DNA of 64,000 nucleotides from an uncultured Bacilli bacterium (GCA_944329445.1 CALVIH010000003.1:5338-69337), one strand, 5' to 3'; positions 6,371 through 53,048 are shown, counted from the first letter of the stretch. The notes: a model not told the origin generated them from the letters alone. Translations and numbers: made by a program.

Positions 6371-6374
6371 ATAA

Positions 6375-6552
6375 TTGACCTGAAGGTATCGTGAGCTGGC
6401 ACATTTAACCCGCTAAATATTATAAGGGAATCAGAATCAATGGTGGTGTTCATGCTTAACTATGATTAAGAAGTCTAAAGCCATTGTGGGATGCCCACCT
6501 GCGAGATGTGCAGGTTTATCTTGTCAGTAAAACGACCCTTTGGGTCTTTTTT
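6375..6552 (+). ncRNA. ssrS: 6S RNA (RNA polymerase-binding regulatory RNA)
   Basis: ORF-free transcript of about 175 nt with its own promoter and terminator (GACCC-TTT-GGGTC plus T6). The 5' end UUGAC..AAGGUA pairs with the 3' end UAUCUU-GUCAG to give a long closing helix. Contains CCACCUGCG as in B. subtilis 6S-1. Same aspS/yrvM(tcdA) position as B. subtilis bsrA. Confidence 0.65.
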
Positions 6553-10658: not shown

Positions 10659-11543
10659 ATGAAAAAAGAAATAGAAAATTACATTAATTTTGTGTACATT
10701 GAAAAAAAACTAAGTGATAATACAAAAAAAGCATATGAAAATGATTTAAATTACTTCTGTGATTATTTAAAAGACAAAGATATCAGCGCTGTTACAACAA
10801 AAGACATAAAAGGGTACATAAAGTATCTTAATGATGCTGGTGAAAAAGATAAGACGATTGCAAGAAAAATAGTAAGCATAAGAACCTTTTTCGATTATCT
10901 GATGCGCGAAAAAACAATTGATGTTAATCCTTGCGAGAAAATAGAGTCTCCTAAACTTAAAAAAACGCTTCCCAAGACTTTGAACGAAGAAGAAATAAAT
11001 AAGTTACTAGACATTAATCCTAAAACGCCGTTAGAGTGGCGAAATAAAGCTATGCTCGAGTTAATGTACGCAACTGGTCTTAGGGTATCTGAGTTAGTTG
11101 AATTGGAAGTAAATGACGTTAATTTAACGGACAACTACGTTAGAGTGTTTGGTAAAGGAAAAAAAGAAAGAATCGTGCCAATGGCTGATATAACTACTAA
11201 AGTAATGAAAACATACTTAAACGATCATAGGCAATCATTATTAAAGGGTTATTTAACTGATAAAGTTTTTATAAGTAGCTACGGAAAAGGAATGACAAGG
11301 CAAGGTTTTTTTAAAGTACTTAAGAAAATTGCAAAAGAAAAAGAAATAAAAAAAGATTTCTCACCACATACTTTAAGACACTCTTTTGCAACGCACTTAC
11401 TTGAGCATGGTGCTGATTTAAGAGCAATTGGTGAGATGTTAGGACACGAAAACATTAAGACGACACAAATATACACACATATATCTAATAATAAAATAAA
11501 AAAAGATTATGATGAATTTCATCCAAGAAATAAAATGATATAA
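10659..11543 (+). CDS. xerD: Site-specific tyrosine recombinase, XerD/XerC type
   Basis: Catalytic region HTLRHSFATHLLEHGADLRAIGEMLGHENIKTTQIYTH, ATGLRVSEL box, N-terminal SAM-like domain. Confidence 0.88.
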   Translation: MKKEIENYINFVYIEKKLSDNTKKAYENDLNYFCDYLKDKDISAVTTKDIKGYIKYLNDAGEKDKTIARKIVSIRTFFDYLMREKTIDVNPCEKIESPKLKKTLPKTLNEEEINKLLDINPKTPLEWRNKAMLELMYATGLRVSELVELEVNDVNLTDNYVRVFGKGKKERIVPMADITTKVMKTYLNDHRQSLLKGYLTDKVFISSYGKGMTRQGFFKVLKKIAKEKEIKKDFSPHTLRHSFATHLLEHGADLRAIGEMLGHENIKTTQIYTHISNNKIKKDYDEFHPRNKMI

Positions 11544-11552
11544 AGGTGAAAT

Positions 11553-12170
11553 ATGAAAGATAGGGTAATTTTATTTTTTTGTGACATATCTGGTACTTTT
11601 AGTGAGGATTTACAATTAAAAAATAATAAATCAAATTATAAACAACTAAGAGATTTATTAGAAAAAAGAAGAAAATTAGTAAATGCAGATAAGGTTATTT
11701 TTAGTATCATAACTTCTGAAAATAATACTTCAAAAATGTTTAAGTACATGGCTATTTTTGAAGAGTTTGTATCAACTAGTAGGGTTGTTTTGGGTTCTTG
11801 TTTTATGCAAGCTCAAAAAATCACATTAAAAAACAAAAAGTTCTATATTGATAATAGCGTTTCTTTTAAATTGCAAGATAAAATAATAAAAATGAAAAAA
11901 TACATAGAAAAAACACAAAATAATTATGATGTTGTCGAGATTGATGTAGCGGATGATTTTGCAAACGAAACCTGGATTGATAATTTAAAAGAATCATCAA
12001 AAAATATTAATGTTAATATTTTTATTCCATCTCATCCTAAAAGTCTTAATCCTAACGTTTACACTTCATTTTATACTGACATTACCGGTTTAGTAGATGC
12101 GATAGAAAAATCTATAGCTCCACCAACGACTTTTTATGATAAGGATGAAAAACAGGATTTAAAGAAATAA
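11553..12170 (+). CDS. Hypothetical protein (possible HAD-like fold)
   Basis: Good RBS. N-terminal FFCDISGTF resembles HAD motif I; otherwise unassigned. Confidence 0.5.
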   Translation: MKDRVILFFCDISGTFSEDLQLKNNKSNYKQLRDLLEKRRKLVNADKVIFSIITSENNTSKMFKYMAIFEEFVSTSRVVLGSCFMQAQKITLKNKKFYIDNSVSFKLQDKIIKMKKYIEKTQNNYDVVEIDVADDFANETWIDNLKESSKNINVNIFIPSHPKSLNPNVYTSFYTDITGLVDAIEKSIAPPTTFYDKDEKQDLKK

Positions 12171-12213
12171 TTTATTATGATTAAAAGCATATAAATTAAC
12201 TAGGAGGTAAATA

Positions 12214-12978
12214 ATGCCAAATAGTGTTTTATATGCTTTTATTTTATCTTTTCTAGCAGGTTTATCTACCGTTATAGGTGCATTGATAATTTTTTTTGAC
12301 AAACGTAAAAACAACAAAATAGTTACAATCTCTCTTTCGTTTGCAGCGGGTGTTATGATATGTGTTTCGTTTACTGATTTGTTGCCTAATTCATATAAGA
12401 TGATGCTTGATGGTACTAGCGTTTTTCCCAAGGTAATGTTAACTCTTATTTTTATGGTGATAGGGGTAATAATATCAATGTTAATAGATAAATATTTACC
12501 ATCGGACTATGAAAGTAAAGATAATAAAGGGTTGTATAAAATTGGAATAATAAGTATGGTTGCAATTATTTTACATAACATACCAGAAGGAATTGCAACT
12601 TTTATAACTTCATCTAACAACATAAGTCTTGGTATAACTTTAAGCTTAGCAATTGCGCTTCATAACATACCAGAAGGAATATCTATCGCGGTACCTATTT
12701 ACCACTCAACTGGAAGTAAGCTTAAAGCAATTATGTATGCATTACTTTCTGGTATGAGCGAGATGGTTGGAAGCATTTTGGCATATTTCTTTTTAGCACC
12801 ATTAATAAACGAGCATGTAATGGCCTCTTTATACGCTATTATTGCGGGCATAATGATTCATATTTCAGTTTATGAACTTATACCCGGTGCTTATAAAGAA
12901 AGTACCTTAAAGGGTGTTATAAAATACTTTTTAATTGGTTTTGCAATAATGATAGTAAGTCATTTACTTATGGGATAA
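12214..12978 (+). CDS. zupT: ZIP-family zinc transporter
   Basis: Multi-pass membrane protein with duplicated LHNIPEGIA/LHNIPEGIS metal-binding motifs. AGGAGG RBS. Confidence 0.88.
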   Translation: MPNSVLYAFILSFLAGLSTVIGALIIFFDKRKNNKIVTISLSFAAGVMICVSFTDLLPNSYKMMLDGTSVFPKVMLTLIFMVIGVIISMLIDKYLPSDYESKDNKGLYKIGIISMVAIILHNIPEGIATFITSSNNISLGITLSLAIALHNIPEGISIAVPIYHSTGSKLKAIMYALLSGMSEMVGSILAYFFLAPLINEHVMASLYAIIAGIMIHISVYELIPGAYKESTLKGVIKYFLIGFAIMIVSHLLMG

Positions 12979-13008
12979 AAGTGTGTTATTATATATCTGG
13001 TGGAAAAT

Positions 13009-13860
13009 ATGTTGGATGATATTATTTGTAAATATAATAAATATGATATAGGTTTTTATGCCGAAGATAAATACGAAAATAAATTAGAATATAATTCAAA
13101 TAAATTGTTTGAAACAGCTAGTTGTTGTAAAGTATTTATTTTAATTGAATACTATAAGCAAGTATTCTTAAAGAAAATAAAATGGGATAATATTTTTGAA
13201 TATAATAAGGAAGATAACATAATTGGTAAAAATTCAGGTGTAATAAAAGATTTTACTTATGGTATCAAATTAAGAACCGAAGATTTAGCAACACTTATGA
13301 TTTTATATAGTGATAATATTGCAACAAATAAATTAATTGATTATCTTGGTTTAGAAAATATAAATGAAACTATTAAACAGTTAGGATTAAAAAACACTAA
13401 AATATTACATAAACTTGATTTATTAAAATATAAAAAGTTTGGCGTTACAACACCTAAAGAATATGCAAGTATTTTCAAAATGATATTGCAAGGTAAAGCT
13501 TATAACAAATGGGTTTCCAAAAAGGTATTGAACCTTTTAAAGAAGCAAACCCGAAGTGATATGATAAATAAAGGCCTTCCACAATATGATCTATTATTCA
13601 AAGGTAATAAAAATGAAAGTATAATAAACTATGTAGCTTCTAAGTCTGGGAGTGTAGTGTACATTGGAACTGATATGAAAAATTGTAGAAATGATGGTGG
13701 GGTTATTGCGACTAAGTATGGTAATTATATTATTTCTATTTTTGTTTCTGACTTAGATGATTTGCAATTAAATTATGATAATAATGGTATTAATTGTGGG
13801 GCAGAAATTTCGAAATATATTTTTAACAAATTTATTAGTAATAAAGGAAGTTTAAAATGA
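13009..13860 (+). CDS. Class A beta-lactamase-like serine hydrolase
   Basis: SxxK (SCCK), SDN (YSDN) and KSG motifs in class-A order. ATG at 13009 follows GGTGGA. No signal peptide is evident. Confidence 0.7.
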   Translation: MLDDIICKYNKYDIGFYAEDKYENKLEYNSNKLFETASCCKVFILIEYYKQVFLKKIKWDNIFEYNKEDNIIGKNSGVIKDFTYGIKLRTEDLATLMILYSDNIATNKLIDYLGLENINETIKQLGLKNTKILHKLDLLKYKKFGVTTPKEYASIFKMILQGKAYNKWVSKKVLNLLKKQTRSDMINKGLPQYDLLFKGNKNESIINYVASKSGSVVYIGTDMKNCRNDGGVIATKYGNYIISIFVSDLDDLQLNYDNNGINCGAEISKYIFNKFISNKGSLK

Positions 13861-14249
13861 TTAAATATAGTAATGAAATAAGATTTAATAAAAATAGTTT
13901 AGCTGAATTATTTTTGAGTGTTGGATGGAATTCTGGCAATCACCCAGATAAAATATATGATGCTATTTTGAATAGTACCTATTACTGCTTTGCATATGAT
14001 AATGAAAATCTAATTGGATTAGTAAGTGCAATATCGGATAAAAGTATTAATCTTTTTCTTACTTACTTATTGGTTAATCCAAATTATCAAAGAAGAGGCA
14101 TTGGAACGAGATTATTAAATAACATTACTAGCGCTGGTGATTTCAACAGAATTATATTAATATCAGAAAAAGGAAAGGAAAGCTTTTATATAAAAAATAA
14201 TTTTATACCTGATGGAGTTGGAATGTTTATAATAGATTGGAATAAATAA
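13857..14249 (+). CDS. GNAT family N-acetyltransferase
   Basis: Acetyl-CoA motif YQRRGIGTRLL. ATGA overlap with the upstream gene. Confidence 0.8.
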   Translation: MIKYSNEIRFNKNSLAELFLSVGWNSGNHPDKIYDAILNSTYYCFAYDNENLIGLVSAISDKSINLFLTYLLVNPNYQRRGIGTRLLNNITSAGDFNRIILISEKGKESFYIKNNFIPDGVGMFIIDWNK

Positions 14250-14296
14250 ACTAAACCTATTTTATAGCATAATAAAATACCAAAGGAAGTACTTAC

Positions 14297-15115
14297 ATGA
14301 ACTATGAATTATTAAATAAAATAATAGATTATTTAGAAGAAAATTTAACAAATGATATAGATACTAAAAAACTAGCTAAAAGTCTGGGACTAAATGACTT
14401 TATAATGCAAAGGGTATTTAGTATTGTAACTAACATTACTATAGCTGAATACGTAAGAAAAAGAAGGTTATCTCTTGCTTTTGAGGAAATAAAGCAAACT
14501 AGTAATAAAGTAATTGACGTTGCATTAAAATATGGATATGAATCAAGTGTTTCTTTTACAAGGAGTTTTAAAAAAGAATTTGGTATTACTCCAAGTAACA
14601 TAAGAAAAAATAAAGATAATAAATATAAAACCTTTCCAAGAATAAAGTTTGGAAGCAAGTTTAATAATAAAACAATAATTAATTATGTAATTAAAAATAT
14701 AAATAGTTTTACCATTTACGGAAAAAAGGTTAGTGCTAAAACCTTTGATGATTTACATTATAAAATAAGAGAACTTTATAAAGAAATAAAAACTGATGGC
14801 ACGTATGATCTTTTTGATAAAAATAAAAGGTATGCCTTAACTTATGATAATAATAATAATAACGTTCATACTTACTTAGTAGGTAGCATTTTAAAGAATA
14901 ATAATTTGGATAGTTATGACGTAAAAAAAGGAGAGTACGCGGTTTTTGAAGTTGGAAATAAAACGCAAAAAGACATTATAAAAACAATTGAATTCATAAA
15001 TGAGATTTGGTATTATTCTTCAAAGTTAGGAGTTAAAGATGATCCATATATAGAGTGTTATACAAAAGATAATTGCTATATATTTGTCCCGCTTGATAAA
15101 AGGAAATATAAATGA
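14297..15115 (+). CDS. AraC-family transcriptional regulator with GyrI-like effector-binding domain
   Basis: N-terminal double HTH (ALKYGYESSVSFTRSFKKEFGITPS) and a C-terminal domain of about 150 aa of GyrI/SbmC type. Confidence 0.8.
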   Translation: MNYELLNKIIDYLEENLTNDIDTKKLAKSLGLNDFIMQRVFSIVTNITIAEYVRKRRLSLAFEEIKQTSNKVIDVALKYGYESSVSFTRSFKKEFGITPSNIRKNKDNKYKTFPRIKFGSKFNNKTIINYVIKNINSFTIYGKKVSAKTFDDLHYKIRELYKEIKTDGTYDLFDKNKRYALTYDNNNNNVHTYLVGSILKNNNLDSYDVKKGEYAVFEVGNKTQKDIIKTIEFINEIWYYSSKLGVKDDPYIECYTKDNCYIFVPLDKRKYK

Positions 15116-15157
15116 TACAATTAATGTATAGAAAAATATTTTTTGTTGGGGGTATTT

Positions 15158-15895
15158 ATGAATAATAAATTTATAGTCATTAAAGATAAAGTTATTGTTT
15201 TTGATGAATATTCTAATACTAAAACATTAAATTACTGTGATAATATTCAAGAAATATTAAAACAAGAAAACAATATAGAAATTATACAAAAAGTAAAAGA
15301 TGATACGGAATGGGCAATAGAAAGTTTAAATAACAAGTGTTCACATAGTAAAGTATGGTGTTTTAACCCTCTTATTGTAGAAGCTATAGGATTGGGAGCT
15401 GGTTACATTCTTTTAAGAATAGCATTAGAAAATGAAATGATAGATACCGCATTCGGTCAAATGAGTATTGAATCTCTTACAATTCTTTATGGTGGAACAG
15501 TTTTGACACCGTTTTCAACAGGATTTTCGTTATCATTGCTATCTAATAGAAAAAAAGACGAAAGAAGATTAAATGCATTAAAAACAATGAAGATTTATGT
15601 TGATGATAAATTAGAAAAAGAAAAAGAAAAACTAAAAGAATTGAAAAAACATAATAGTAGTGGACATAAAGATTTTTCCTACACAGATGGAGAAAAAGTT
15701 ATTATAGAACCAGATTATGATTTTTATATGAATTTTGATCATCAAAGAAAACTATATTATAACACTGTATATAATGAAAAGAAATATAAAAAATATCTTC
15801 AAAAAGGCAATTTAGAAAACAAATTGCCTTACTATACTGATGATGATATAGATAAAGTTAAAAAAATATTAAAAAGAAACAAAACTGATATGTAA
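15158..15895 (+). CDS. Hypothetical membrane protein with coiled-coil C-terminus
   Basis: ATG at 15158 after GGGGG. Two hydrophobic segments and a K/E-rich segment. Confidence 0.55.
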   Translation: MNNKFIVIKDKVIVFDEYSNTKTLNYCDNIQEILKQENNIEIIQKVKDDTEWAIESLNNKCSHSKVWCFNPLIVEAIGLGAGYILLRIALENEMIDTAFGQMSIESLTILYGGTVLTPFSTGFSLSLLSNRKKDERRLNALKTMKIYVDDKLEKEKEKLKELKKHNSSGHKDFSYTDGEKVIIEPDYDFYMNFDHQRKLYYNTVYNEKKYKKYLQKGNLENKLPYYTDDDIDKVKKILKRNKTDM

Positions 15896-15946
15896 AATGT
15901 TTCTTTTTTTATTTTTATTAGTATTAAAATTATATCGGTGGTATAA

Positions 15947-17635
15947 GTGATTAGGCGATATTTTAAATTATGTAAAGAAACTAGGAAAGTACTTTATTTC
16001 TTTTTATTTGTTTTATTAATACTTGGCATACTAGATCTTATAATTCCAATATTTGCATCTAATATAATCGATTATTTAACCGATAAAAACTTAAATCTTT
16101 TTATTAAAACGTTAATTATTTTATTTGTATTATATTTTACGACAAATACTTTTTCTTACTTTGCATGCAGACTTTATTCTGTATACTTTAGAGAAAGCTT
16201 TAAAAACATACATAAGAAAATTATTAATAGAATATATGATTATAACGATGATGAATTAGTTAAATTACCAAAAGGTAAAATACTATCAACGGTTAACATT
16301 GACTCTATTAACATAGCGGAAATGGCCGATTATATGTTTAACGTTTTATATAATTTTATTTTGGTAATTTGTATGCTAATTGTATTTATTAAAACTAACG
16401 TTGTTTTAGGTGTTATTCTTTTTTTCGTGATAATAATATATGCATCCCTTGCGTTTTACTTAACAAAAAAATCAAGTTACTACATGAAAGGACAAAGGTT
16501 ATATCAAGATAAGCTTACTAATTTATTAAGTCAGACGCTAAACGGACTTAAAGAAGTTAAAACGCTTAACTTAAAACAAAGTTTAAACGTAAAATATGAT
16601 GGTATGAGAAGAGGGTGGGCAAAAAAATACATGTTAAAAAGAAGGTATTATATAGCATACTCTGTTATCTTAAAATACATAAGATACATATCAAAGATAC
16701 TGTTATACGTAATATCTGGTGTACTTATATTTAATGGTAAAATAACGATTGGAACCATAATATTATTAATTACTTACTTTGATAATATATTTACTTATTT
16801 AACCACGCTTGTAAGTGATGTTGGAACCGTTAGAAACTACAATATTTCATTAGAAAGAGTTTGGGAACTTTTAAATAATAATGTTAATAACGATACATAT
16901 GGATGTGTAGATAATGATTATATTAATGGTGTGGTTACTTTTAAAAATGTATCATTTGCTTATAAAGATATTGCTACAATAAAAAACGTTAGTTTTACTG
17001 CAATGCCTAATAGAATAACCGTGATAGTGGGTAAAACGGGTAGTGGAAAAACAACCATCCTTAACATTTTGTTAAGGCTTTATAAACCAGATAAGGGTAA
17101 CGTATTAATTGATGATATAAACATAAAAGAATATACAAAAGAAGTTTATTATAACAACGTATCGGTTGTTAATCAGGAGAGTTTTTTGTTTAACATGAGT
17201 ATTAAAGATAATTTATCAATGGTAGATAAAGACGTAAATAAACAAATAGAGGTTTGTAAAAGGGTAGGTATTCATGACTTGATAACTAAATTACCAAAGG
17301 GATATAACACCATTTTAAGCGAAAATGCGGGCAATTTATCTGGTGGTCAAAAAAGATTACTATCTTTAGCTAAAACCCTTTTAAAGGGTGCAGAAATACT
17401 CTTATTTGACGAGGTAACATCATCACTTGATCCAAAAACTACAAAAGAGATAATAAACGTGTTAAAGGATTTGAAAAAAGATCATACGGTAATTGTAATT
17501 ACACATAAAGAAGAAATGATGAAAATAGCAGATGAACTTATTATTTTAAATAAAGGGTGTGTGGTTGCAAAAGGTAAATATAATAATTTAAGTAATAATA
17601 AATATTTTAATGATTTAATTAATAAGGAGAAGTAA
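15947..17635 (+). CDS. ABC exporter, fused permease/ATPase
   Basis: Six-TM N-terminal domain. Walker A GKTGSGKTT, signature LSGGQKRLLSLA, Walker B ILLFDEVTS. Confidence 0.9.
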   Translation: MIRRYFKLCKETRKVLYFFLFVLLILGILDLIIPIFASNIIDYLTDKNLNLFIKTLIILFVLYFTTNTFSYFACRLYSVYFRESFKNIHKKIINRIYDYNDDELVKLPKGKILSTVNIDSINIAEMADYMFNVLYNFILVICMLIVFIKTNVVLGVILFFVIIIYASLAFYLTKKSSYYMKGQRLYQDKLTNLLSQTLNGLKEVKTLNLKQSLNVKYDGMRRGWAKKYMLKRRYYIAYSVILKYIRYISKILLYVISGVLIFNGKITIGTIILLITYFDNIFTYLTTLVSDVGTVRNYNISLERVWELLNNNVNNDTYGCVDNDYINGVVTFKNVSFAYKDIATIKNVSFTAMPNRITVIVGKTGSGKTTILNILLRLYKPDKGNVLIDDINIKEYTKEVYYNNVSVVNQESFLFNMSIKDNLSMVDKDVNKQIEVCKRVGIHDLITKLPKGYNTILSENAGNLSGGQKRLLSLAKTLLKGAEILLFDEVTSSLDPKTTKEIINVLKDLKKDHTVIVITHKEEMMKIADELIILNKGCVVAKGKYNNLSNNKYFNDLINKEK

Positions 17636-17637
17636 AA

Positions 17638-18075
17638 ATGAATAATTTTAGTGATATAGATTTTGAAAAGATATTTAAACCGATGAGCGAGGAAGAAATA
17701 AAAAAAGAAAAAATAATGGAAGAAGAAAGAAAAAAATATTATGACAAAGTAAAAGAAAACTTTCTAAATTTAGCAAGATCTCTTCCAGGAAGAGAATTTG
17801 AAACGCCAAGTGATCCATTAACTACTATAAAAGGGGAAATAAAAGATAACAAGATAGTTAACTTAAGAGCCTTAACTAGTAATAGGGCCTTAAAAGAAGG
17901 AATAAATATGATATTTAGTAATAATGATAATAATTATTTCGAATATAGCATAAATAACAATGTTACCTTAAAAAGCGATACGATTCCTGAGAACTTTAAA
18001 GATATTATGTCTTGGATATTAAAAGTAGATGGTATTAATTATGAAAACGATTATAACAATGGAAAAAGTAAGTAA
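17638..18075 (+). CDS. Hypothetical protein
   Basis: AAGGAG RBS, tightly coupled to the ABC gene. No known domain. Confidence 0.55.
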   Translation: MNNFSDIDFEKIFKPMSEEEIKKEKIMEEERKKYYDKVKENFLNLARSLPGREFETPSDPLTTIKGEIKDNKIVNLRALTSNRALKEGINMIFSNNDNNYFEYSINNNVTLKSDTIPENFKDIMSWILKVDGINYENDYNNGKSK

Positions 18076-18098
18076 TTAATTATGAATGGGTGGAATAT

Positions 18099-18662
18099 AT
18101 GGAAGTTTTAAATGCAATAAAAACAAGATGGAGTAATTACAAATACAAAAATAAAGAAATACCAAAAGAAGTAGTAGAGGACATATTAAATTGTGGTAGA
18201 CTTGCTCCTTCTGCTAAAAATAGACAACCATGGTACTTTGTTGTTACTTCTGGAAAGACAAAAACTAATATTATAAAAGTTATGAAAGATAAAGCTAAAA
18301 ACATTACCAATAAAAGTGAGATGAAAAGAATAGGGCATTCGTGTAGTCTTTTATCAACTGCTAAGACGATTGAAAAAGTTCCGATATTAGTTTTAGTATA
18401 TAGACCTGATGATATAGCATGGGCTAAAGGTGATAGATTATCAATTGGTGCGTGCGTAGAAAACATGTGTCTAAGAGCAACTGAACTAGGTATTGGTTCT
18501 TTATGGATATTAGATACCATATACGTAGAAAAAAAAATACAAGAAATTACTCATAATGAAAACATGGAATTAGTATGTGGTCTATTATTAGGATACCCGG
18601 ATCAAAAACCTAGAAAAAAGAATAGAAAAAAATTAAGGAATATAATAAAGTGGCAAGCATAA
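18099..18662 (+). CDS. Nitroreductase family protein
   Basis: RWSNYKY...LAPSAKNRQPWYFVV FMN-binding signature. ATG at 18099 follows GGGTGG. Confidence 0.85.
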   Translation: MEVLNAIKTRWSNYKYKNKEIPKEVVEDILNCGRLAPSAKNRQPWYFVVTSGKTKTNIIKVMKDKAKNITNKSEMKRIGHSCSLLSTAKTIEKVPILVLVYRPDDIAWAKGDRLSIGACVENMCLRATELGIGSLWILDTIYVEKKIQEITHNENMELVCGLLLGYPDQKPRKKNRKKLRNIIKWQA

Positions 18663-18779
18663 TTTATAAGTAAAGTTATATAATAGAGATTTTATGAGTT
18701 TAAAAACATTAAAACTAGATTGGCAAAACGATAATAATTTGTTAGTATAAATTGCATTAAATCACTTAAGGGGGATACC

Positions 18780-19190
18780 ATGAAAATATTGAAAAAAATT
18801 CAAAACAACTTTGAAAATAATAAAACTTATAAATACATTAAAGATTGTAATATTAAAAGCGTAAATAAAAGAAAGCTTGCATCTTTAGCTTTGGTTCCAA
18901 TGATTATTTGTGGTAGTATTATTGGAACAGCAACCAATGTTAAAGCTTCACAAATGGAAGATAATTACCATAATGAAAAAGAAACTAATAGTATAATATA
19001 TGTTGATGAAAATAAAAATGAATTAACATATCAAGAAAATAAAAATAATAAAATAAATAGTAATTTACTTTTTATTGATTCTGAAGAGGATAAAGAATTA
19101 TTTGATTATATTACGCTTGGCGTAAGTTGTACAGCGCTTGGGGTAGCAGTAGCTGGTCTTGTAGATAATCCAAGTAATAGAAGAAGATAA
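18780..19190 (+). CDS. Hypothetical membrane-anchored protein
   Basis: GGGGGA RBS; N-terminal and C-terminal TM segments. Confidence 0.5.
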   Translation: MKILKKIQNNFENNKTYKYIKDCNIKSVNKRKLASLALVPMIICGSIIGTATNVKASQMEDNYHNEKETNSIIYVDENKNELTYQENKNNKINSNLLFIDSEEDKELFDYITLGVSCTALGVAVAGLVDNPSNRRR

Positions 19191-19252
19191 ATAGCTAACG
19201 TTTTGGCTATTTTTATTATACAATTATATAATCTTCTAACATAATGCTTTAA

Positions 19253-19281
19253 TTGAATTAAAACAATATCTATGCTATAAT
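19253..19281 (+). promoter_or_regulatory. Sigma-A promoter (extended -10) of the HEPN/MNT pair
   Basis: TTGAAT, 17 nt spacer, TGcTATAAT. Confidence 0.5.
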
Positions 19282-19305
19282 TTAGTCAAGAAATAAGGAG
19301 GTATT

Positions 19306-19719
19306 ATGAAAAAATTTCAAGATAAATTAGAAAAATTAAATTTAGCTTATAATTCTTTAAAAGAAATGATAGAGTTTGGAAATACTGCTAACATATCATT
19401 AGAAAAGTTTGATGAGGCACTAAGAGATTCAATAATAAAAAAATTTGAGTATACTTTTGAACTTTCTTGGAAAACAATTAAAGCATATTTAGAAGAAGAA
19501 GGCTATGAAGAAATGTCTTCTCCTAGAAAAGTTTTGAAACAAGCTTTTGAATCGAATATAATAATTGATGAAGAAGTCTGGTCTAATATGTTAGAAGCGA
19601 GAAATTCAACAGCTCATACGTATGATGAAGAAAAAGCAATTTATTATGAAGACGTAATAAAAAACAAATATGTTAAAAAGTTAGATGAACTAATAAAAAA
19701 ACTAAACGAGGTAAAATAA
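19306..19719 (+). CDS. HEPN-domain protein (HI0074-type nucleotidyltransferase substrate-binding protein), putative RNase toxin
   Basis: KFEYTFELSWKTIKAYL core and an intact Rx4H motif (RNSTAH). Confidence 0.8.
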   Translation: MKKFQDKLEKLNLAYNSLKEMIEFGNTANISLEKFDEALRDSIIKKFEYTFELSWKTIKAYLEEEGYEEMSSPRKVLKQAFESNIIIDEEVWSNMLEARNSTAHTYDEEKAIYYEDVIKNKYVKKLDELIKKLNEVK

Positions 19720-19720
19720 A

Positions 19721-20023
19721 ATGTATGGTATTAGAGATAATTTATATAATGATATGATATCTGTTATAAAAAACTTCGGTGTTAAAAAAGCGATTCTTTT
19801 TGGAAGTAGGGCAAGAGGAGATTATAAAAATAACTCTGACATAGACTTGGCTTTTATTTTTAATAATAACGATAAAGATAATTTTATTAAAATGCAAGCT
19901 AAACTAGAAGAGTTAAACACTTTATATAAATTTGATGTTATTGATTTTAACGCTTTAAAAAATGATAAATTTAAAGAAGAAATATTAAAAGACGGAATAG
20001 TTATATTTGAAAAAAATAGCTAA
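19721..20023 (+). CDS. Minimal nucleotidyltransferase (MNT), putative antitoxin
   Basis: LFGSRARGDYKNNSDIDLA (GSx10-12DxD). Begins 1 nt after the HEPN stop codon. Confidence 0.85.
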   Translation: MYGIRDNLYNDMISVIKNFGVKKAILFGSRARGDYKNNSDIDLAFIFNNNDKDNFIKMQAKLEELNTLYKFDVIDFNALKNDKFKEEILKDGIVIFEKNS

Positions 20024-20042
20024 ACATTTTAGCTATTTTTAT
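20013..20042 (+). terminator. Rho-independent terminator
   Basis: Perfect 10-bp stem AATAGCTAAA/TTTAGCTATT enclosing the MNT stop codon, followed by a T run. Confidence 0.7.
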
Positions 20043-20066
20043 TGTATAATTGTTATGGTGATATAA

Positions 20067-20612
20067 ATGAAGTTAAAGAATTTTTTTGGACATTTAAAAA
20101 CTGTAAATAAACATAGATTTTTAGTATTCAAGCTATCTATTAAAGCTGGAATTCCTATAAGAGGCTTATTGCACGATTTATCTAAATATTCACCTGCAGA
20201 GTTTTTTGAAAGTGTTAAATACTATAATGGTAAAATAAGCCCTATTAAAATAAGTAAACAAGAAAATGGTTATTCAAAAGCATGGCTCCATCACAAAGGA
20301 AGAAATAAACATCATTTTGAATACTGGTATGATTTTAATACACCAGATAAAACACCAATGATTCCGTATAAATACTTAGTAGAATTGATATGTGATAATA
20401 TAGCTGCTTCAATGATATATAAAGGTAAAGATTGGAACCCAAAATTGCAACTAGAATATTTTAAAAATAGAAAAGATTTGGAATATATAAATAGTGATGT
20501 TAAGAAAATATTAATAGAAGTATATTCAGAAATTATTAAAAAAGGTATAGATAAAGTAATTAATAAAAAGAACTTAATAAGAATATATAATAAATATGCA
20601 AGTAAAAAATAA
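20067..20612 (+). CDS. DUF5662-family protein
   Basis: HDLSKYSPAEF...WLHHKGRNKHHFEYW is characteristic of this family. Confidence 0.7.
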   Translation: MKLKNFFGHLKTVNKHRFLVFKLSIKAGIPIRGLLHDLSKYSPAEFFESVKYYNGKISPIKISKQENGYSKAWLHHKGRNKHHFEYWYDFNTPDKTPMIPYKYLVELICDNIAASMIYKGKDWNPKLQLEYFKNRKDLEYINSDVKKILIEVYSEIIKKGIDKVINKKNLIRIYNKYASKK

Positions 20613-20633
20613 TAGGTTATAAAGCCTATTATT

Positions 20634-21572
20634 TTATTTTGTTTTAGGTATAGCAAATAAAATAGTTTCAGTAGGGTAGATACAGTTTCCATAACACCTT
20701 AAATAATAATTATAATTATTATTTGTTTGATTTATTAGTTTAGGTATTTTCCACAAATGATCATTATTATGATAAACTGAAATTAATAATTTTGGACTAT
20801 CATTTTTTATATGATTTAAACTTCCTAATAAAGCATTTTCTTCAGAACCTTCTATATCCATTTTTATCATAGTTATTTTATCTTTAATATCTATATCCAA
20901 TGTAGTTGTATTAAGTAAAATATCACCTTTTTTGCTAACTTTATTAGCAGATGCTGATATATTATTTACGTCTAGATATAAATTATCTATTTTATTACTT
21001 ACGGCTTTTTTATTATATATAATATTATTATATTTAGATAGATTATCTTTTAATTTAGAAAAAGTATCATCTGTTATATCATAACAATATATTTTTTTAT
21101 ACGAGTCTTCTCCATAAGTATATATATAATCTATTATACTATCACCTGTATAAGCTCCTAAATCTACCACTATTTCATCTTTACAGTATGGAATTATATC
21201 TAAATCAAAATAATGCTTAAAAGGTGTATCTAAGCATGTTTTAACCGTACTAAAATCATAACAATACCAATTATTTAAAATACCATATAATAATTTCTTA
21301 GATTTATAATCTTTAAGATTTTTATATAACCAAACAAAATCATCTATATGTTCTTTTAACGTACTAGCTTTTAGATACAATGCATCATAATTATTGTTTT
21401 CTATATCAATCTTTCCCCAATAGTTAAATTTATTAAAGAAACTTTCTATAGATTTTCTAGTATCTTGATGTACTTTAGAAAAACTATTTTTTATATTTAA
21501 ATAAATCTCATCTGTTGACATTAAATTAATTTTTTTAACTAATTCATAAAAACCTATATCTATATTATTCAT
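20634..21572 (-). CDS. FkbM-family SAM-dependent methyltransferase
   Basis: VVDLGAYTGDS and MIKMDIEGSE motifs. GGAGGA RBS. Extremely AT-rich. Confidence 0.8.
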   Translation of the reverse strand: MNNIDIGFYELVKKINLMSTDEIYLNIKNSFSKVHQDTRKSIESFFNKFNYWGKIDIENNNYDALYLKASTLKEHIDDFVWLYKNLKDYKSKKLLYGILNNWYCYDFSTVKTCLDTPFKHYFDLDIIPYCKDEIVVDLGAYTGDSIIDYIYTYGEDSYKKIYCYDITDDTFSKLKDNLSKYNNIIYNKKAVSNKIDNLYLDVNNISASANKVSKKGDILLNTTTLDIDIKDKITMIKMDIEGSEENALLGSLNHIKNDSPKLLISVYHNNDHLWKIPKLINQTNNNYNYYLRCYGNCIYPTETILFAIPKTK

Positions 21573-21721
21573 ATTAACATCCTCCTATATAAAATATATA
21601 TTAATATTAGTAAAAAATGATTTATCTTTTTTATAAAATAATTTTTTCTTCAATTATTTACAAATGAAAAATATATGATATAATAATAGCCAATTAAAAT
21701 TTTATTTATATGGAGGAAATT

Positions 21722-22549
21722 ATGAATGATAATGTAAGAGATGAATTAGTAAAGAGTATTGAAAATTTATATTCAAGTGTAGGAGAAAATGGTTATTTTA
21801 TATGTAAATTATATGAAGAAAAAATATTGAAAATTAATGATCTAGACTTAAGTTATTGGTTTGCTAAAAATATATATGGAGCTGATATAAAAGCTCATGG
21901 TATGGTTGTATTAGATAGTAAAGATCCAGAATGGAATTATATTTTTGCTAGAGATGTAAAAGGAGCTGATATAAAAGCTCATGGTATGGTTGTATTAGAT
22001 AGTAAAGATCCAGAATGGAACTTTAAGTTTGCTTGCCTCGTAAAAGATGCTGATATAAAAGCTCATGCACAAGTAGTATTAGATAGTAAAGATCCAGAAT
22101 GGAACTTTAAGTTTGCTAGAGATATAAAAGATGCTGATATAAAAGCTCATGCACAAGTAGTATTAGATAGTAAAAATCCAGAATGGAACTGTAATTTTGC
22201 TGAATATGTAAAAGATGCTGATATAAAAGCTCATGCACAAGTAGTATTAGATAGTAAAGATCCAGAATGGAACTGTAATTTTGCTTGCCTAGTAAAAGAT
22301 GCTGATATAAAAGTTCATGCACAAGTAGTATTAGATAGTAAAGATCTAAAATGGAACTGTAATTTTGCTGAATATGTAAAAGATGCTGATATTAATGCCC
22401 ACGAGCAAATTATAATAGAATCTAACGATATAAAATTATATTATAACTTTCTTAGAGAGGTAAAACATATGGATTTAAATGGTATATACTGTAATTATAT
22501 AGGTGAACAAGCTGATAAAGTTGATTCTATATTAAAAAAATTAAAATAA
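21722..22549 (+). CDS. Repeat protein made of seven 28-aa tandem repeats
   Basis: ATG at 21722 after GGAGGA. Repeats have the form (G/D)ADIKAH(A/G)(Q/M)VVLDSKDPEWN(F/C/Y)xFAxxVK. Confidence 0.7.
   Translation: MNDNVRDELVKSIENLYSSVGENGYFICKLYEEKILKINDLDLSYWFAKNIYGADIKAHGMVVLDSKDPEWNYIFARDVKGADIKAHGMVVLDSKDPEWNFKFACLVKDADIKAHAQVVLDSKDPEWNFKFARDIKDADIKAHAQVVLDSKNPEWNCNFAEYVKDADIKAHAQVVLDSKDPEWNCNFACLVKDADIKVHAQVVLDSKDLKWNCNFAEYVKDADINAHEQIIIESNDIKLYYNFLREVKHMDLNGIYCNYIGEQADKVDSILKKLK
21878..22465 (+). repeat. 84-bp tandem repeat, 7 copies (6 near-identical, last degenerate), in frame within the CDS
   Basis: Period 84 nt starting at 21878. Exact stretches of about 60 nt are shared between units 3 to 6. 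Confidence 0.9.
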
Positions 22550-22663
22550 TGTTTTAAAAATGACTTCTAATAGTCTTTTTTTTATTAAAAATATTAATAA
22601 TTTTTAATTAATATATAATTGTTTTTTTAATATTTTATAATATAATTAATAAAGGTGACTGAA

Positions 22664-23095
22664 ATGAAAAATAAGTTAGAAAATTTTATGAAAAATAGAT
22701 ATGGTATAGATCATTTATATATGTTTTTATTTACTTTATATTTTATATTAATAATTATAAACTTATTTATTAATTCCATTGTTATTACTATATTAGAATT
22801 AATAATTGTAATAATAATGTTTTATAGAATGTTTTCTAAAAATAAATATAAAAGAAGTAGGGAAGAGATGATTTATTTAAGATTAAAAGATAATATTATA
22901 AATTTATTTAAAAATTTTAAAGTCAAGGATAAAGACCATGTTTATAGAAAATGTAAAAAATGCAAAACAAAAATAAGACTACCACTACCTAGTACAATAG
23001 GTTTTAAATATATAACTTGCCCTAAATGTAAAAATAAGTTTAAGACTTTGGTTTTAAAAAAACAAAAAATAGAAATAATAAGAAAAAAGAATTAA
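22664..23095 (+). CDS. Small membrane protein with C-terminal CxxC...CxxC zinc ribbon
   Basis: ATG at 22664 after AAAGGTGA. Two TM helices, then CKKCKTK...CPKCKNK. Confidence 0.6.
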   Translation: MKNKLENFMKNRYGIDHLYMFLFTLYFILIIINLFINSIVITILELIIVIIMFYRMFSKNKYKRSREEMIYLRLKDNIINLFKNFKVKDKDHVYRKCKKCKTKIRLPLPSTIGFKYITCPKCKNKFKTLVLKKQKIEIIRKKN

Positions 23096-23196
23096 GTCCC
23101 CTATTATAATTAATGATAAAAAGTAGGGGGATATAAGATTTATTTTAACGATACATATTTAATCATTTATAAAAAACATTATGTATTAATTATTAA

Positions 23197-23230: not shown

Positions 23231-23500
23231 AAAAGACGCATAGTTATTCATCTCGATTCATTCTACGATGTTATATTTTTGTATATACTTACCTTATTTT
23301 TTATTATTATATAATGTTAGGGTAGAAAAAAGGTAATATATGTATTTTTAACATAACATAATACACAGATAAGTATTTATATTTAATTATTAAAAAATTA
23401 CTTAGAATGACTAAATAGCTTATAGAATAAATATTTATTATTTAAATATATTTACGTAAAAATGATAATAAAAAATGGTTATCTACCAGTTAGAGTAGTA

Positions 23501-23534
23501 TAAAAAAATAGTCATACATTATAGTAAGACTATT
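23501..23534 (-). terminator. Rho-independent terminator of the HTH regulator gene
   Basis: Minus-strand AATAGTC-N14-GACTATT followed by TTTTT. Confidence 0.55.
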
Positions 23535-23551
23535 TTAAATAAAAAAGCAAA

Positions 23552-23579
23552 TGTTAACATAATATGTATTATATGAACT
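23552..23579. other. dif: Candidate dif site (XerCD chromosome-dimer resolution site)
   Basis: The minus-strand reading AGTTCATATAA-TACATA-TTATGTTAACA matches 22 of 28 positions of B. subtilis dif (ACTTCCTAGAA-TATATA-TTATGTAAACT, from memory). It lies exactly at the gene-orientation switch. Confidence 0.6.
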
Positions 23580-23596
23580 AAGATATAGTAGTTAAG

Positions 23597-24364
23597 TTAA
23601 ACGTCACGGGATTGTATTTCGGCAATCTTAGCAAGTACTTCTGATGCGTTAGATTGGTTAATCTCAGTGTATCCAAGTTCGTGTAATGCTTGTATTTTAG
23701 CAGAATTAATCTCTTGGGTTCTACTTAATTTTTCTTCGTTTTTGTGTTCTATTTCTGCAACAAACTTCTTGTGTTGTTCTGCTAACTTTGTTTTGGAAGC
23801 CCCTCCGTTACGGTATAACACCATTGCGGAATGCATAATACTTTCGAATACAAATTGCTCATCTTCGTTAAAAGCATATTCTTCCGGATTAACAAAACCT
23901 AATAATTTGACAATATAACCCATCATATACTTTAATTCTTTTACGTTTTCTAACCCTTGAATAAAATGAAGCAAGTATTTATAAGTTACGTAAGAGTCAT
24001 TAGAATTCTCAATAAAACGCTCTTTAATCATAAATATAATATCATTTAGAAGTTCTTGCTCTCTTGGTTTTAATTCCTTAAATTCAATGCTTTCAGAGTG
24101 TGTTACTGTTATGTTTGAAACTTCACCATTTAAAACCATGTCCACCTTGTTAATGAATTCTGCATCAACTTTTATATTATCTATTTCAGAAGCTTCTTTA
24201 ATATCTAACAAATTAAATAATTTCATCTTTTTATCCTTAGGCCATCTAGAAACATCATTCATTTCTAAATAATTGTAGATCATTTGCCTTGAAACTCCTA
24301 GATATTTTGCTAACTTTACCTTTGAAATTCCAAGTTCTTGTAAAATTTCGTTAAGTTTATCCAT
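23597..24364 (-). CDS. Helix-turn-helix (XRE-like) transcriptional regulator
   Basis: N-terminal HTH LGISKVKLAKYLGVSRQMIYNYLE; the C-terminal 180 aa are unassigned. Confidence 0.7.
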   Translation of the reverse strand: MDKLNEILQELGISKVKLAKYLGVSRQMIYNYLEMNDVSRWPKDKKMKLFNLLDIKEASEIDNIKVDAEFINKVDMVLNGEVSNITVTHSESIEFKELKPREQELLNDIIFMIKERFIENSNDSYVTYKYLLHFIQGLENVKELKYMMGYIVKLLGFVNPEEYAFNEDEQFVFESIMHSAMVLYRNGGASKTKLAEQHKKFVAEIEHKNEEKLSRTQEINSAKIQALHELGYTEINQSNASEVLAKIAEIQSRDV

Positions 24365-38790: not shown

Positions 38791-40116
38791 ATGTTAAAAC
38801 AAATAGATTTTACTAAATTACCAATAACAGAAATAGTAAATGAAATTATATTTACCGCTGCTCAAGCAGGGGCAAGTGACATACACTTTGATCCCGCTGA
38901 AAAAGGTATTAAAGTTAGATTTAGGATCGACGGTGTTTTAATTGACTACACAATAGTTCCCGAAAGCATTAGAAAAAACTTGATCGCTAGGCTTAAAATA
39001 ATTTCTGGTATGGATATTACCGAATCAAGATTACCACAAGATGGTGCAATCAAAATGACGATAAAAAACATTAATCTTGACATGCGTGTTTCTTCCCTAC
39101 CTACTAATGAAGGTGAAAAGATTGTTATTCGTATTCTTGACTACACTGCTTCTTTAAAAGGCCTTGATAGTCTTGGATTTTCTCCGGTTAACTTAAAAAA
39201 GGTAAAAGAATTAATAAAAGAACCAAATGGAATCATACTTGTTACCGGAGCAACTGGAACTGGTAAATCAACCACCGTTTATTCTATTTTACAAACGCTT
39301 AATACTCCGGAGGTTAATTTAGTAACGGTTGAAGACCCAGTTGAGATGAACATTGAGAACATAAATCAGATACAGGTTAATAGTGAAATTGGACTTACCT
39401 TCGCAGAAGTACTACGTTCTATTTTGCGTCAGGACCCAGACATTATAATGATTGGAGAAATACGTGATGATGAAACTGCAAAAATAGCTGTTAGGGCCTC
39501 TATTACTGGACACTTGGTACTATCTACGATACATACGAATAACGCTTTAAATACAATTGAACGTTTAACTGACATGGACGTTGAAACTTACCTTTTAGCT
39601 TCTTCTTTAAACGGAATCATTTCTCAAAAGCTAGCTAGAAAAATATGTCCACATTGCATGAAAAAACGTCCTGCAATTGATTATGAAAAAAAGTTAATTA
39701 AAGCCAACTTAGGAGTTGATATAACAGAACTTGCATACGCTGAAGGATGCTCAGAGTGTGTTGGTGGTTACAAAGGAAGAATTGCGATTCATGAAGTACT
39801 TGTTATCTCACAAGATATAAGGGATGCTATTGCAAACGGTATGCCTAAAGAGGAGCTAAGAAAACTAGTTTATCAAGGTGATACCAAGACTCTTTTACAA
39901 GATGGTTTAACCAAAGTATTGGAAAACATTACAACGATTGAAGAAATATTAAGATTAGTTGAGCTTGATGATGAATCTGTTAAAATAGTAACTGCTAAAG
40001 ACAACGTAAACCAACAGCAACCACTAACAAGTAATCAATCAGAAACGATTAATAATAGCGCTCAAAGTGTTCCTATCCCACCGGTTAATAATGACGTGGA
40101 GATGCTTGACGTATAA
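38791..40116 (+). CDS. pilB: Type IV pilus/competence assembly ATPase (GspE/PilB/ComGA family)
   Basis: Walker A GATGTGKST, Asp box, His box GHLVLSTIHTNNA, tetracysteine CPHC...CSEC. Confidence 0.9.
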   Translation: MLKQIDFTKLPITEIVNEIIFTAAQAGASDIHFDPAEKGIKVRFRIDGVLIDYTIVPESIRKNLIARLKIISGMDITESRLPQDGAIKMTIKNINLDMRVSSLPTNEGEKIVIRILDYTASLKGLDSLGFSPVNLKKVKELIKEPNGIILVTGATGTGKSTTVYSILQTLNTPEVNLVTVEDPVEMNIENINQIQVNSEIGLTFAEVLRSILRQDPDIIMIGEIRDDETAKIAVRASITGHLVLSTIHTNNALNTIERLTDMDVETYLLASSLNGIISQKLARKICPHCMKKRPAIDYEKKLIKANLGVDITELAYAEGCSECVGGYKGRIAIHEVLVISQDIRDAIANGMPKEELRKLVYQGDTKTLLQDGLTKVLENITTIEEILRLVELDDESVKIVTAKDNVNQQQPLTSNQSETINNSAQSVPIPPVNNDVEMLDV

Positions 40117-41495: not shown

Positions 41496-43319
41496 TTATA
41501 ATGCGTCATACATACCATACATAGGTAAGATTACAGCAAGTAAAATACCACCTACTAAAACAGCTAGAACAACGATCATAATTGGCTCTATCAAAGATTT
41601 CATTTGGTTTATAATCGTTCGGTGCTGTTCTTGATAATAATCAGAAACCCTCTCCATCATCGGTCCTAACCTACCGGTTTTTTCACCTGTAATAAGCATT
41701 TGATAGGCAATGTTAGGAAAGGCCCAATGATCTTTAAAAGCCGTTGAAATGGCCTCACCCTTGGTTAGGTTTTTAGCCGTATCAAAAATAAGTTTTTTAT
41801 ATACTTCATTTTCAGTTATTTTACTTAAAACGTCCATCGAATCAGTAATAAATACGTTATGGTTAATAAGATTTGCAAATGTTTTAGCAAAAATAGTAAC
41901 CTCGTTGTATATTATAATATTACCGAATACAGGTAAGTGCATCGCAAACTCTTGCATGCTTCTTCTAAATGCTTTAACATTTTTAAATAAATATATATAT
42001 ATTAATATTACAACAATTAACACCAACAAAATGTACATTAAATAGTCTTTCAAGAAATCACTTATGGCAATTACTACCTTAGTTATCGTTGGTATATCGC
42101 TACCTAAATCAGCATATATATCAACGAACTGTGGAACTACCCACATCAAAATAAACGTAACTACTACAGCGGCAAAAATCGTAACGATAACCGGATACAT
42201 CATCGCGGATTTCATCTGTCTTTTCGTGCTCTCAGATTCAGTATAATAATCTACCATGTCATCTAATGTTTCTGGTAAATTACCAGTCATTTCAGCCGTC
42301 TTTATCATGTTTATTAAAAGTCTAGGAAACGTATCCCTTCTTTTTTCCATGGCAACTGATAGTACGTCACCCATTGATAAGTCATAATAAACGGCGCGCC
42401 AAGCTTTCTTTTCATTAATGGCTTTAGCTTGATCTTCTAGTATTTTTACAGCTTCCGCCAATGCAATACCTGATTTTAAATAAGCGGATAACTGTGATAA
42501 ATAAAAAATCAAACGGTTTCTTTTCATCTTATAAGTAAATATGTTAGGTTTCGCTTTTGCAGCGGTTATTTCGTAAACCTCATACCCTTCTGCTAACAAA
42601 AACGAATGTACATCTACCCTAGATAATGCCTCTATTTCACCTTTTTCTAATTCACCCTTTGAATTACGAGCTGTGTAAGTAAATAATAAAGGTTTGGTCA
42701 AACGTGATGCTTCTTTGCTTTTATCCTTAAATTGTTCGTCTAATACGCTTTTTTTAGCTTCTAATTCAAGTTCTTCCTTTTTGTTATACGTAAGCTTTTT
42801 ATAAAAAGACTTTAATTTATCAGAAAAAGTAACTGGTACACCTTTAGCTTTTAACGCTGCTTCCTTCTTTTCTTTCGCAGCCTCCCATGCTTCTTCCTTT
42901 TTCTTACGTTCTAATTCACGTGCTTGTCTTTCTTTTTCTTTCTTTTCGTTTTCGAGTCTAATTCTTTCTTGTTCTTTTACTCTTCGAGCTTCCTCGGCCC
43001 TTGCCTTTGCAACTAAACGTTCGAACTCCTTTTGTCTTTTTATTTTATTTTTTTCTTTCTCTTTAGAAATCTTAACCGGATCAGTTTCTTTTACTGGCGC
43101 TTTCGGAGTTTCATATGCTGATCGTTTTTCTTTGACAACCTTAACCGTTTCTCCTGGTTTAACCTCAGGCATTACGTGTGCTTTTTCTTCTTTTTTATTT
43201 TTACCTATTCCAAAAACCTTTCCAATACCAATGACGAAATAATAAGGTAATAATAACACCGTTATAAAACCTCTGTATATAAAAACGAATGGTAACAAAA
43301 TAATATCTAACGCGCTCAT
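41496..43319 (-). CDS. pilC: Type IV pilus platform protein (GspF/PilC/ComGB family) with N-terminal extension of about 205 aa
   Basis: Two T2SSF repeats (FPRLLINMIKTAEMTGNL, FPNIAYQMLITGEKTGRL). The canonical N-terminus starts near FTYTARNSKGE; a TM segment and a K/E-rich helix precede it. Confidence 0.88.
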   Translation of the reverse strand: MSALDIILLPFVFIYRGFITVLLLPYYFVIGIGKVFGIGKNKKEEKAHVMPEVKPGETVKVVKEKRSAYETPKAPVKETDPVKISKEKEKNKIKRQKEFERLVAKARAEEARRVKEQERIRLENEKKEKERQARELERKKKEEAWEAAKEKKEAALKAKGVPVTFSDKLKSFYKKLTYNKKEELELEAKKSVLDEQFKDKSKEASRLTKPLLFTYTARNSKGELEKGEIEALSRVDVHSFLLAEGYEVYEITAAKAKPNIFTYKMKRNRLIFYLSQLSAYLKSGIALAEAVKILEDQAKAINEKKAWRAVYYDLSMGDVLSVAMEKRRDTFPRLLINMIKTAEMTGNLPETLDDMVDYYTESESTKRQMKSAMMYPVIVTIFAAVVVTFILMWVVPQFVDIYADLGSDIPTITKVVIAISDFLKDYLMYILLVLIVVILIYIYLFKNVKAFRRSMQEFAMHLPVFGNIIIYNEVTIFAKTFANLINHNVFITDSMDVLSKITENEVYKKLIFDTAKNLTKGEAISTAFKDHWAFPNIAYQMLITGEKTGRLGPMMERVSDYYQEQHRTIINQMKSLIEPIMIVVLAVLVGGILLAVILPMYGMYDAL

Positions 43320-52799: not shown

Positions 52800-53048
52800 T
52801 ATGTTATTTCGTAAATAAAAACGCTCATCCAAACAAAGGATGAACGTTCGTCCACGGTACCACCTTAATTCATATCAAAAAGATATGCAACTTATTACCT
52901 TAACGCGGTACACGCAATTACTTACTATCATTTCAATAATTGAGCTCCAAAGCTACCTTCAACCATCCTTCACGCAAACTTACACCAACCATCTGCTCTC
53001 TATGGTAAATAAATGATTTACTCCTCTTTTTCATCGCTTTAAAAAGTA
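52800..53048 (-). promoter_or_regulatory. T-box leader (Val)
   Basis: Minus strand: GA/K-turn region (GCGAUGA), AGAGAG box, distal GGUUGGUG, and Val codons GUG-A and GUA-G on the 3' side of Stem I. T-box AAGGUGGUACCGUGG at 52852-52866. Terminator AACGUUCAUCC/GGAUGAGCGUU plus U5 at 52812-52848. Confidence 0.85.

Follow-up and report, generated by a model that had tools for sequence, protein, structure and literature searches.

A 28-bp sequence at positions 23552–23579 (minus strand) of the 64-kb stretch of DNA analysed here (hereafter the window) is, with high probability, the chromosomal dif site of the bacterium from which the DNA was derived. The host is an uncultured, spore-forming gut member of the Bacillota with ~29% GC, belonging to Bacilli incertae sedis and close to 'Candidatus Aphodocola'. 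Homologous proteins are listed under 'Bacilli bacterium' and 'Candidatus Aphodocola excrementigallinarum' (Bacilli incertae sedis), and the SpoIIM of the window organism was present on metagenome scaffolds, the sequence being found in chicken-gut runs. The original prediction of a dif site at the replication terminus is supported by the architecture of the site, its agreement with the consensus, its position relative to the skew and to gene orientation, the single match within the window and the presence of an XerD gene. The site and its parts are as follows:

23552..23579, minus strand: probable dif site, identified from its exact sequence, its position weight matrix (PWM) score and its conservation in 8 independently found relatives
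23569..23579, minus strand: XerC-side arm AGTTCATATAA, matching the left arm of Firmicutes dif
23563..23568, minus strand: 6-bp central region TACATA, invariant in the clade and identical in phage attP
23552..23562, minus strand: XerD-side arm TTATGTTAACA, invariant in the clade

Read directly from the minus strand, the site is AGTTCATATAATACATATTATGTTAACA, that is AGTTCATATAA-TACATA-TTATGTTAACA, exactly as it had first been read. The two arms form an imperfect inverted repeat about the 6-bp centre, in the canonical 11-6-11 form, and the Firmicutes consensus is matched. Strand exchange would be expected in the central region TACATA, by analogy with known sites of this form. The XerD-side arm is identical to the B. 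subtilis arm TTATGTAAACT at 9/11 positions, and it also matches the E. coli XerD arm, TTATGTTAAAT, at 9/11. The nearest listed dif sites are those of Desulfotomaculum reducens (GGTTCCGATAATACATATTATGTTAACT, 24/28) and of the Bacillus cereus group (ACTGCCTATAATATATATTATGTTAACT). The complete B. subtilis dif of the first comparison, ACTTCCTAGAATATATATTATGTAAACT, proved to be the entry for strain 168 in supplement 2 of Kono et al. 2011 (PMC3025954), and a recount against it returned the same 22/28 identities (8/11 in the XerC arm, 5/6 in the centre and 9/11 in the XerD arm).

We scored the window with a PWM built from 45 distinct Firmicutes dif predictions in the table of Kono et al. 2011 (PMC3025954). 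The Clostridium botulinum entries were left out of it, being evident errors located 137–175 degrees from the skew shift point. The site reached 22.3 bits, while the next independent site in the window had 4.4 bits, the reverse complement of the site itself 6.1 bits and the best match in 60 simulated 64-kb sequences 14.0 bits. The exact tail probability is 7.7e-9 per position, which gives 0.001 expected matches per window and 0.02–0.05 per genome of 1.2–3 Mb. Three positions in the outer part of the XerC arm, together with the last base, bring the score just under that of the weakest site used for building the matrix (24.05 bits); the window's own variant has G at position 2, A at position 6 and A at position 28. 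No second dif-like site was found in the 64-kb window by sequence or PWM scans.

The site lies where the two replichores meet. On the plus strand, the GC skew is positive up to ~23 kb and negative afterwards, with the sign change between 22 and 25 kb, and the cumulative G-C has its maximum at 23718, 139 bp from the site. Gene orientation follows the same pattern, with 24 long ORFs on the plus and 2 on the minus strand to the left of the site, against 5 on the plus and 34 on the minus strand to its right, so the predicted switch of orientation at the site was recovered by skew and gene counts alike. Leading strands and genes thus run towards the site from both sides, as is typical of a terminus and not of an origin. 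The genes on the left side (hisS, aspS, 6S RNA, an mgsA-like gene and xerD) and on the right side (spoIIM, spoIVB, xseA, mutS, dnaG, proS, valS and lon) are ordinary chromosomal genes. The xerD gene is 12 kb away from the site and spoIIM only 0.9 kb, and this xerD-spoIIM neighbourhood presumably resembles the ripX-spoIIM neighbourhood of B. subtilis.

The interval between xerD and dif (11553–23100) has a GC content of 21–27%, and its gene content varies among the relatives, as seen by comparison with contigs L028–L035. It includes an ABC exporter, an AraC-type regulator, GNAT acetyltransferases, a nitroreductase and a DUF5662 protein, together with a class-A beta-lactamase-like protein at 13000–13860 and a HepT/MNT-like pair at 19306–20023, and it has the look of a plastic region of accessory genes at the terminus. 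Tandem repeats of ~84 bp at 21860–22392, within a 279-aa ORF (21710–22549, plus strand), were seen as staggered self-matches in the BLAST comparison of metagenome scaffold L001 with the window. Elsewhere in the window, the 6S RNA gene (6374–6550, plus strand) and a T-box leader (52833–53043, minus strand) were both above the Rfam gathering threshold.

The word GAAGAAG was found 37 times on the leading strand vs 2 times on the lagging strand, a bias that reverses at the site and is shared by many purine-rich words. It was rejected as a specific FtsK/SpoIIIE orienting motif, since it is indistinguishable from the general purine/coding-strand skew. The orienting motifs GAGAAGGG and GGGNAGGG were absent from the window.

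One gene for a tyrosine recombinase was identified in the window:

10659..11543, plus strand: xerD tyrosine recombinase gene, 294 aa (Pfam Phage_integrase and SAM-like N-domain; NCBIfam TIGR02225)

The prediction had named this gene as an XerD-type recombinase 12 kb away from the site, and its product indeed scores 359.7 bits with the NCBIfam XerD model TIGR02225, above the equivalog cut-off of 329.6. It stays below the cut-off of the XerC model (321 bits, cut-off 335) and far below that of the XerS model (126.9 bits, cut-off 267). The gene is syntenic in the relatives. No second tyrosine recombinase, hence no XerC, was found in the 64-kb window or in the 20-kb related loci, and no FtsK/SpoIIIE-type translocase gene was seen among the large ORFs of the window.

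By analogy with XerCD-dif, the XerD encoded at 10659–11543 would bind the TTATGTTAACA arm, and an XerC/CodV-type partner, which would be encoded outside the window, would bind the AGTTCATATAA arm. An odd number of crossovers would join the replicated sister chromosomes into a dimer, and a translocase of the FtsK/SpoIIIE type would then bring the two dif copies together at the septum. Exchange of strands by XerC and XerD at the borders of TACATA would restore the monomers.

Next to the site, on the same strand, the following features were identified:

23597..24364, minus strand: gene encoding a 255-aa protein with an N-terminal XRE-type HTH (weak HTH_3 match); stop codon at 23597–23599
23498..23536 (approximately), minus strand: hairpin followed by a U-run, likely an intrinsic terminator (RNA fold, z = -2.6)

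A gap of 17 bp separates the HTH-gene stop codon from the XerC arm of dif, and the hairpin follows the site, in keeping with the predicted placement between stop codon and terminator. With the likely terminator beyond it, dif would be in the 3′ UTR of the HTH gene. The hairpin was missed by a simple terminator scan because it has too few G-C pairs; a comparable hairpin and T-run come after the site in the relatives. The orthologues of the HTH gene precede dif in all relatives, with intervening genes or several hundred bp in L031, L032 and L063. The protein is 84–93% identical across more than 100 clusters (5977 matches, E <= 0.001), whereas the SpoIIM proteins of the same genomes are only 61–78% identical.

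Pfam and NCBIfam gave only weak HTH matches for this 255-aa protein, and no sequence relative of it was found in the PDB. Its AlphaFold model was poor (pLDDT 68, pTM 0.42), and Foldseek returned nothing at E < 0.4. In phage TLCphi, XafT consists of an XRE HTH and an unknown domain and is encoded beside the XerC arm of attP (PMC6744903). The XafT-type domain DUF3653 was absent from the 255-aa protein, for which a Pfam scan up to E = 10 showed HTH families only. By analogy with XafT, there is perhaps a slim chance that the protein acts as a chromosomal partner of dif and Xer, either as a Xer activation factor or as a terminus-organising protein; the adjacency, the conservation and the architectural parallel to XafT are the basis for this suggestion.

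To follow the site in other genomes, eight related contigs were fetched through their SpoIIM homologues only (61–78% amino acid identity), independently of the site. All eight share the order mutS, xseA, spoIVB, spoIIM, the 255-aa HTH gene, the orientation switch, variable accessory genes, Zip and xerD. Each locus has exactly one strong PWM match (18–30 bits), located in 8/8 cases 11–116 bp from the locus's own cumulative skew maximum. Among the nine sequences, which were thus chosen independently of the site, 25/28 positions are invariant, and the mean pairwise identity is 0.95 within the site vs 0.68 in the 100 bp on each side. The clade consensus is [A/T][G/C]TTC[A/G]TATAA-TACATA-TTATGTTAACA (equal to [A/T][G/C]TTC[A/G]TATAATACATATTATGTTAACA), with all three variable positions falling in the XerC-side arm; the relatives with G at position 6 score 24–30 bits. 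In L031 and L032, another gene intervenes between the HTH gene and the site, yet the site keeps both its sequence and its place at the skew peak.

A metagenome scan with a pattern verified on the window recovered 23 contigs, each with one site in the same context and none with a second match, even among those of 111–329 kb. As these contigs were selected by the pattern, they support the single-copy occurrence and the context of the site and not its conservation. The metagenome scaffold L001 is 99.97% identical to the window and is thus uninformative for conservation. Another pattern, TTCATATAAT-N6-TTATGTTAA, has one base too many between the arms and does not match the window site, so it served as a rough background control only; with this 7-bp spacer, 25 matches were found in 596 Gb of genome contigs. 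One of the 7-bp-spacer matches, ACTTCATATAA-TAAATTT-TTATGTTAACT, occurs in Bacillus, Cytobacillus, Metabacillus and Peribacillus with nearly identical flanks (L005:3000-3024, L013:3165-3189, L018:2185-2209 and L020:6964-6988). Owing to the conserved flanks, this match in four genera of Bacillaceae may represent an Xer site belonging to a mobile element that they share.

In Logan assemblies of chicken-gut runs, contigs are interrupted at the dif 28-mer, with a 34-bp unitig of higher depth at 23550–23583 and contigs starting at 23554 and 23556. Such breaks are expected for a word common to co-occurring strains or phages, and this sharing of words at dif may systematically fragment metagenome-assembled genomes (MAGs) at the terminus. 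No phage-chromosome junctions were found for this species in the Logan contigs of four chicken-gut runs.

In three related hosts (L028, L061/L062 and L063), integrase-less inovirus-like elements of ~4.7 kb were found inserted exactly in dif. The loci of these elements are:

L028:11525-16256, integrated element
L061:5878-10811, integrated element
L063:6059-15624, tandem pair of elements
L059, whole contig (4575 bp), free circular form

In L028, the attL AGTTCGTATAATACATA-CAATGTTAAAA comes directly after the HTH gene and an intact dif, AGTTCGTATAATACATATTATGTTAACA, is found 4704 bp further. The element between them (4676 bp) encodes an XRE repressor, small ORFs, a 339-aa protein, a Zot-like ATPase and a rolling-circle Rep, which matches PF23343 and phrog_3419, and no integrase. 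Beyond the second site, contig L035 matches L028 at 95% identity, and its site is empty, so the insertion can be delimited with single-base precision. The Rep family has numerous members, many of them on contigs of 4.4–5.3 kb; a search for the Rep protein and the dif pattern in viral contigs gave no matches. L059 is taken to be circular due to its 30-bp terminal repeat, and its single attP, AGTTCGCATAA-TACATA-GAATGTTAAAA, is in the 3′ end of rep.

The phage in L061/L062 is of the L059 type and is integrated in another host. Its attL in L061, GGTTCGTATAATACATA-CAAGGTTAATA, is composed of the host XerC arm and the phage right arm, while attR, AGTTCGCATAATACATA-TTATGTTAACA, is composed of the phage XerC arm (with C at position 7) and the host XerD arm. 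From these hybrid sites, the crossover can be mapped to the interval bounded by position 7 of the XerC arm and by position 1 of the XerD arm, i.e. in or at the central region, which is where Xer recombinases exchange strands (PMC6744903). L063 represents a more distant host with the same synteny, whose dif, ACTTCCCATAA-TTGATA-TTATGTTGCCT (29.8 bits), lies at the skew maximum. A related phage is present there in two tandem copies, bounded by ACTTCCCATAA-TTGATA-TTATGAATGAG. Together, the dif and the prophage sites of L063 indicate that attP follows the XerC arm and the central region of its host and that its XerD-side arm is degenerate; a degenerate arm likewise replaces the XerD-side arm in the phage-derived attL sites of the relatives.

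The attP is located within the last codons of rep (L059:4380-4470, L028:11525-11570 and L061:5878-5925), so integration would swap the C-terminal residues of Rep. Additional copies resembling the XerC arm flank attP in the arrangement TTATACGAACT-ATT-[attP]-ATT-AGTTCGTATAA, inverted upstream and direct downstream, and could be accessory binding sites or part of a single-strand fold.

Type IV pili are common receptors of filamentous phages. The window encodes type IV pilus/competence-type genes at 38791–40116 (plus strand) and 41496–43319 (minus strand), namely for an ATPase resembling PilB/GspE and a membrane protein resembling PilC/GspF, and relatives of this organism are infected by filamentous phages.

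The three independent insertions, the hybrid attL and attR, the empty site for comparison and the free circular attP document recombination at the site in the relatives. Although indirect, the insertions in relatives are the strongest support obtained for the 28-mer working as a recombination site on the chromosome. The window itself does not carry such an element, as its single dif is unoccupied and no phage-like genes are present beside it.

We weighed the dif reading against other explanations. That the 28-mer resembles dif by chance, in intergenic DNA rich in AT, or is an att scar left by a mobile element in place of a functional dif, is hardly conceivable. The genome is AT-rich (~23% GC locally), the core ATAA-N6-TTAT is of low complexity and the 25 matches of the 7-bp-spacer pattern in 596 Gb show that similar words arise by chance or in other roles; on the other hand, only 0.001 matches are expected by chance per window, and the 25 invariant positions are kept in relatives whose flanks have diverged. 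As for a scar, the attL scars of the relatives have a degenerate XerD arm, whereas the window site has an intact one, with neither a second dif-like site in the window nor adjoining phage-like genes. It is also very improbable that the 28-mer is mainly a regulatory or 3′-UTR element of the HTH gene, such as an operator or an RNA element, with a coincidental likeness to dif. In favour of such a role, the 28-mer is placed between the HTH-gene stop codon and the terminator and is therefore transcribed, it follows the orthologous HTH gene in most relatives, promoter-like hexamers overlap it, and its inner palindrome can form a small hairpin according to the RNA fold. However, promoter-like hexamers are no more frequent in the region than expected from shuffling (18 vs 17.6), and in L031, L032 and L063 the site stays at the skew maximum even when separated from the HTH gene. 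Moreover, in L063 the HTH gene is conserved while the site is a different dif variant, and the phage attP sites copy the 28-mer and recombine with it.

The remaining explanation accepts a working Xer site but assigns it to a non-canonical set of recombinases, either XerD alone or XerD with a partner other than a CodV/XerC orthologue. The presence of only one tyrosine recombinase, both in the window and in each of the 20-kb related loci, would fit with this, as would its score on the XerC model (321 bits), which is near the cut-off of 335, and single-recombinase Xer systems do exist in Firmicutes, namely XerS/difSL (PMC1914069). Nevertheless, xerC is normally encoded elsewhere in the genome, the two arms clearly differ in their outer halves and the left arm fits the CodV/XerC arm of Bacilli. 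The recombinase also passes the XerD equivalog cut-off and is far below that of XerS (126.9 vs 267 bits). The single recombinase gene adjoins difSL, which is a longer and different site, whereas the recombinase gene here is 12 kb from the site. We thus consider a non-canonical set unlikely, and a dif site of the XerCD type is the preferred reading.

Compared with known systems, the site resembles the B. subtilis dif, which is used by CodV (XerC) and RipX (XerD), in its 28-bp length, its 11-6-11 form, its location at the skew shift point and the presence of an XerD equivalog. It differs in that the lineage of the window has its own clade consensus and in that dif is only 12 kb from xerD. With the Firmicutes predictions of Kono et al. 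2011 (PMC3025954) it shares the same profile and the same relation to the skew shift point. That survey did not include this uncultured lineage; it holds no prediction for C. perfringens 13 or C. beijerinckii, and its C. botulinum predictions are 137–175 degrees off (PMC3025954), so in that resource at least, the dif sites of clostridia with very low GC were left unsolved. The likeness to the XerS/difSL system of streptococci and lactococci (PMC1914069) is limited to a dimer-resolution site at the terminus in Firmicutes, as the window site has the canonical 11-6-11 form and its recombinase is an XerD equivalog, 12 kb off, that fails the XerS model.

The elements in the relatives can be compared with the IMEX, mobile elements that integrate by means of the host Xer recombinases and for which an integrase-less filamentous phage at dif is a hallmark (PMC6744903). 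In the relatives, attP shares the XerC arm and the entire central region with dif, as in the IMEX of the TLCphi/gonococcal-genetic-island type (PMC6744903, PMC9226527), and tandem arrays are common to both. Unlike those IMEX, the hosts here are Gram-positive Bacilli and not Proteobacteria, in which Xer-exploiting integration has mainly been characterised (PMC6744903), and attP is inside the 3′ end of rep. No DUF3653/XafT-like protein was found in the elements of the relatives or beside dif. A precedent for the integration of mobile elements revealing a dif system is reported in Legionellales (PMC9765430).

The site is an ordinary member of the XerCD-dif family and is new only as the first described dif of this uncultured lineage. 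The more notable by-product is that inovirus-like elements lacking an integrase occupy dif in Gram-positive Bacilli of the gut, with an attP that tracks the dif of the host. Assigning dif fixes the terminus and the dimer-resolution site of a gut lineage abundant in chicken-gut metagenomes, and a fixed terminus helps in orienting and closing MAGs and in replichore-aware analyses. A clade-specific dif consensus is also gained for a lineage outside the 2011 survey (PMC3025954), and the loci of the relatives offer natural sets of attP, attB, attL and attR for Xer-exploiting integration in Bacillota.
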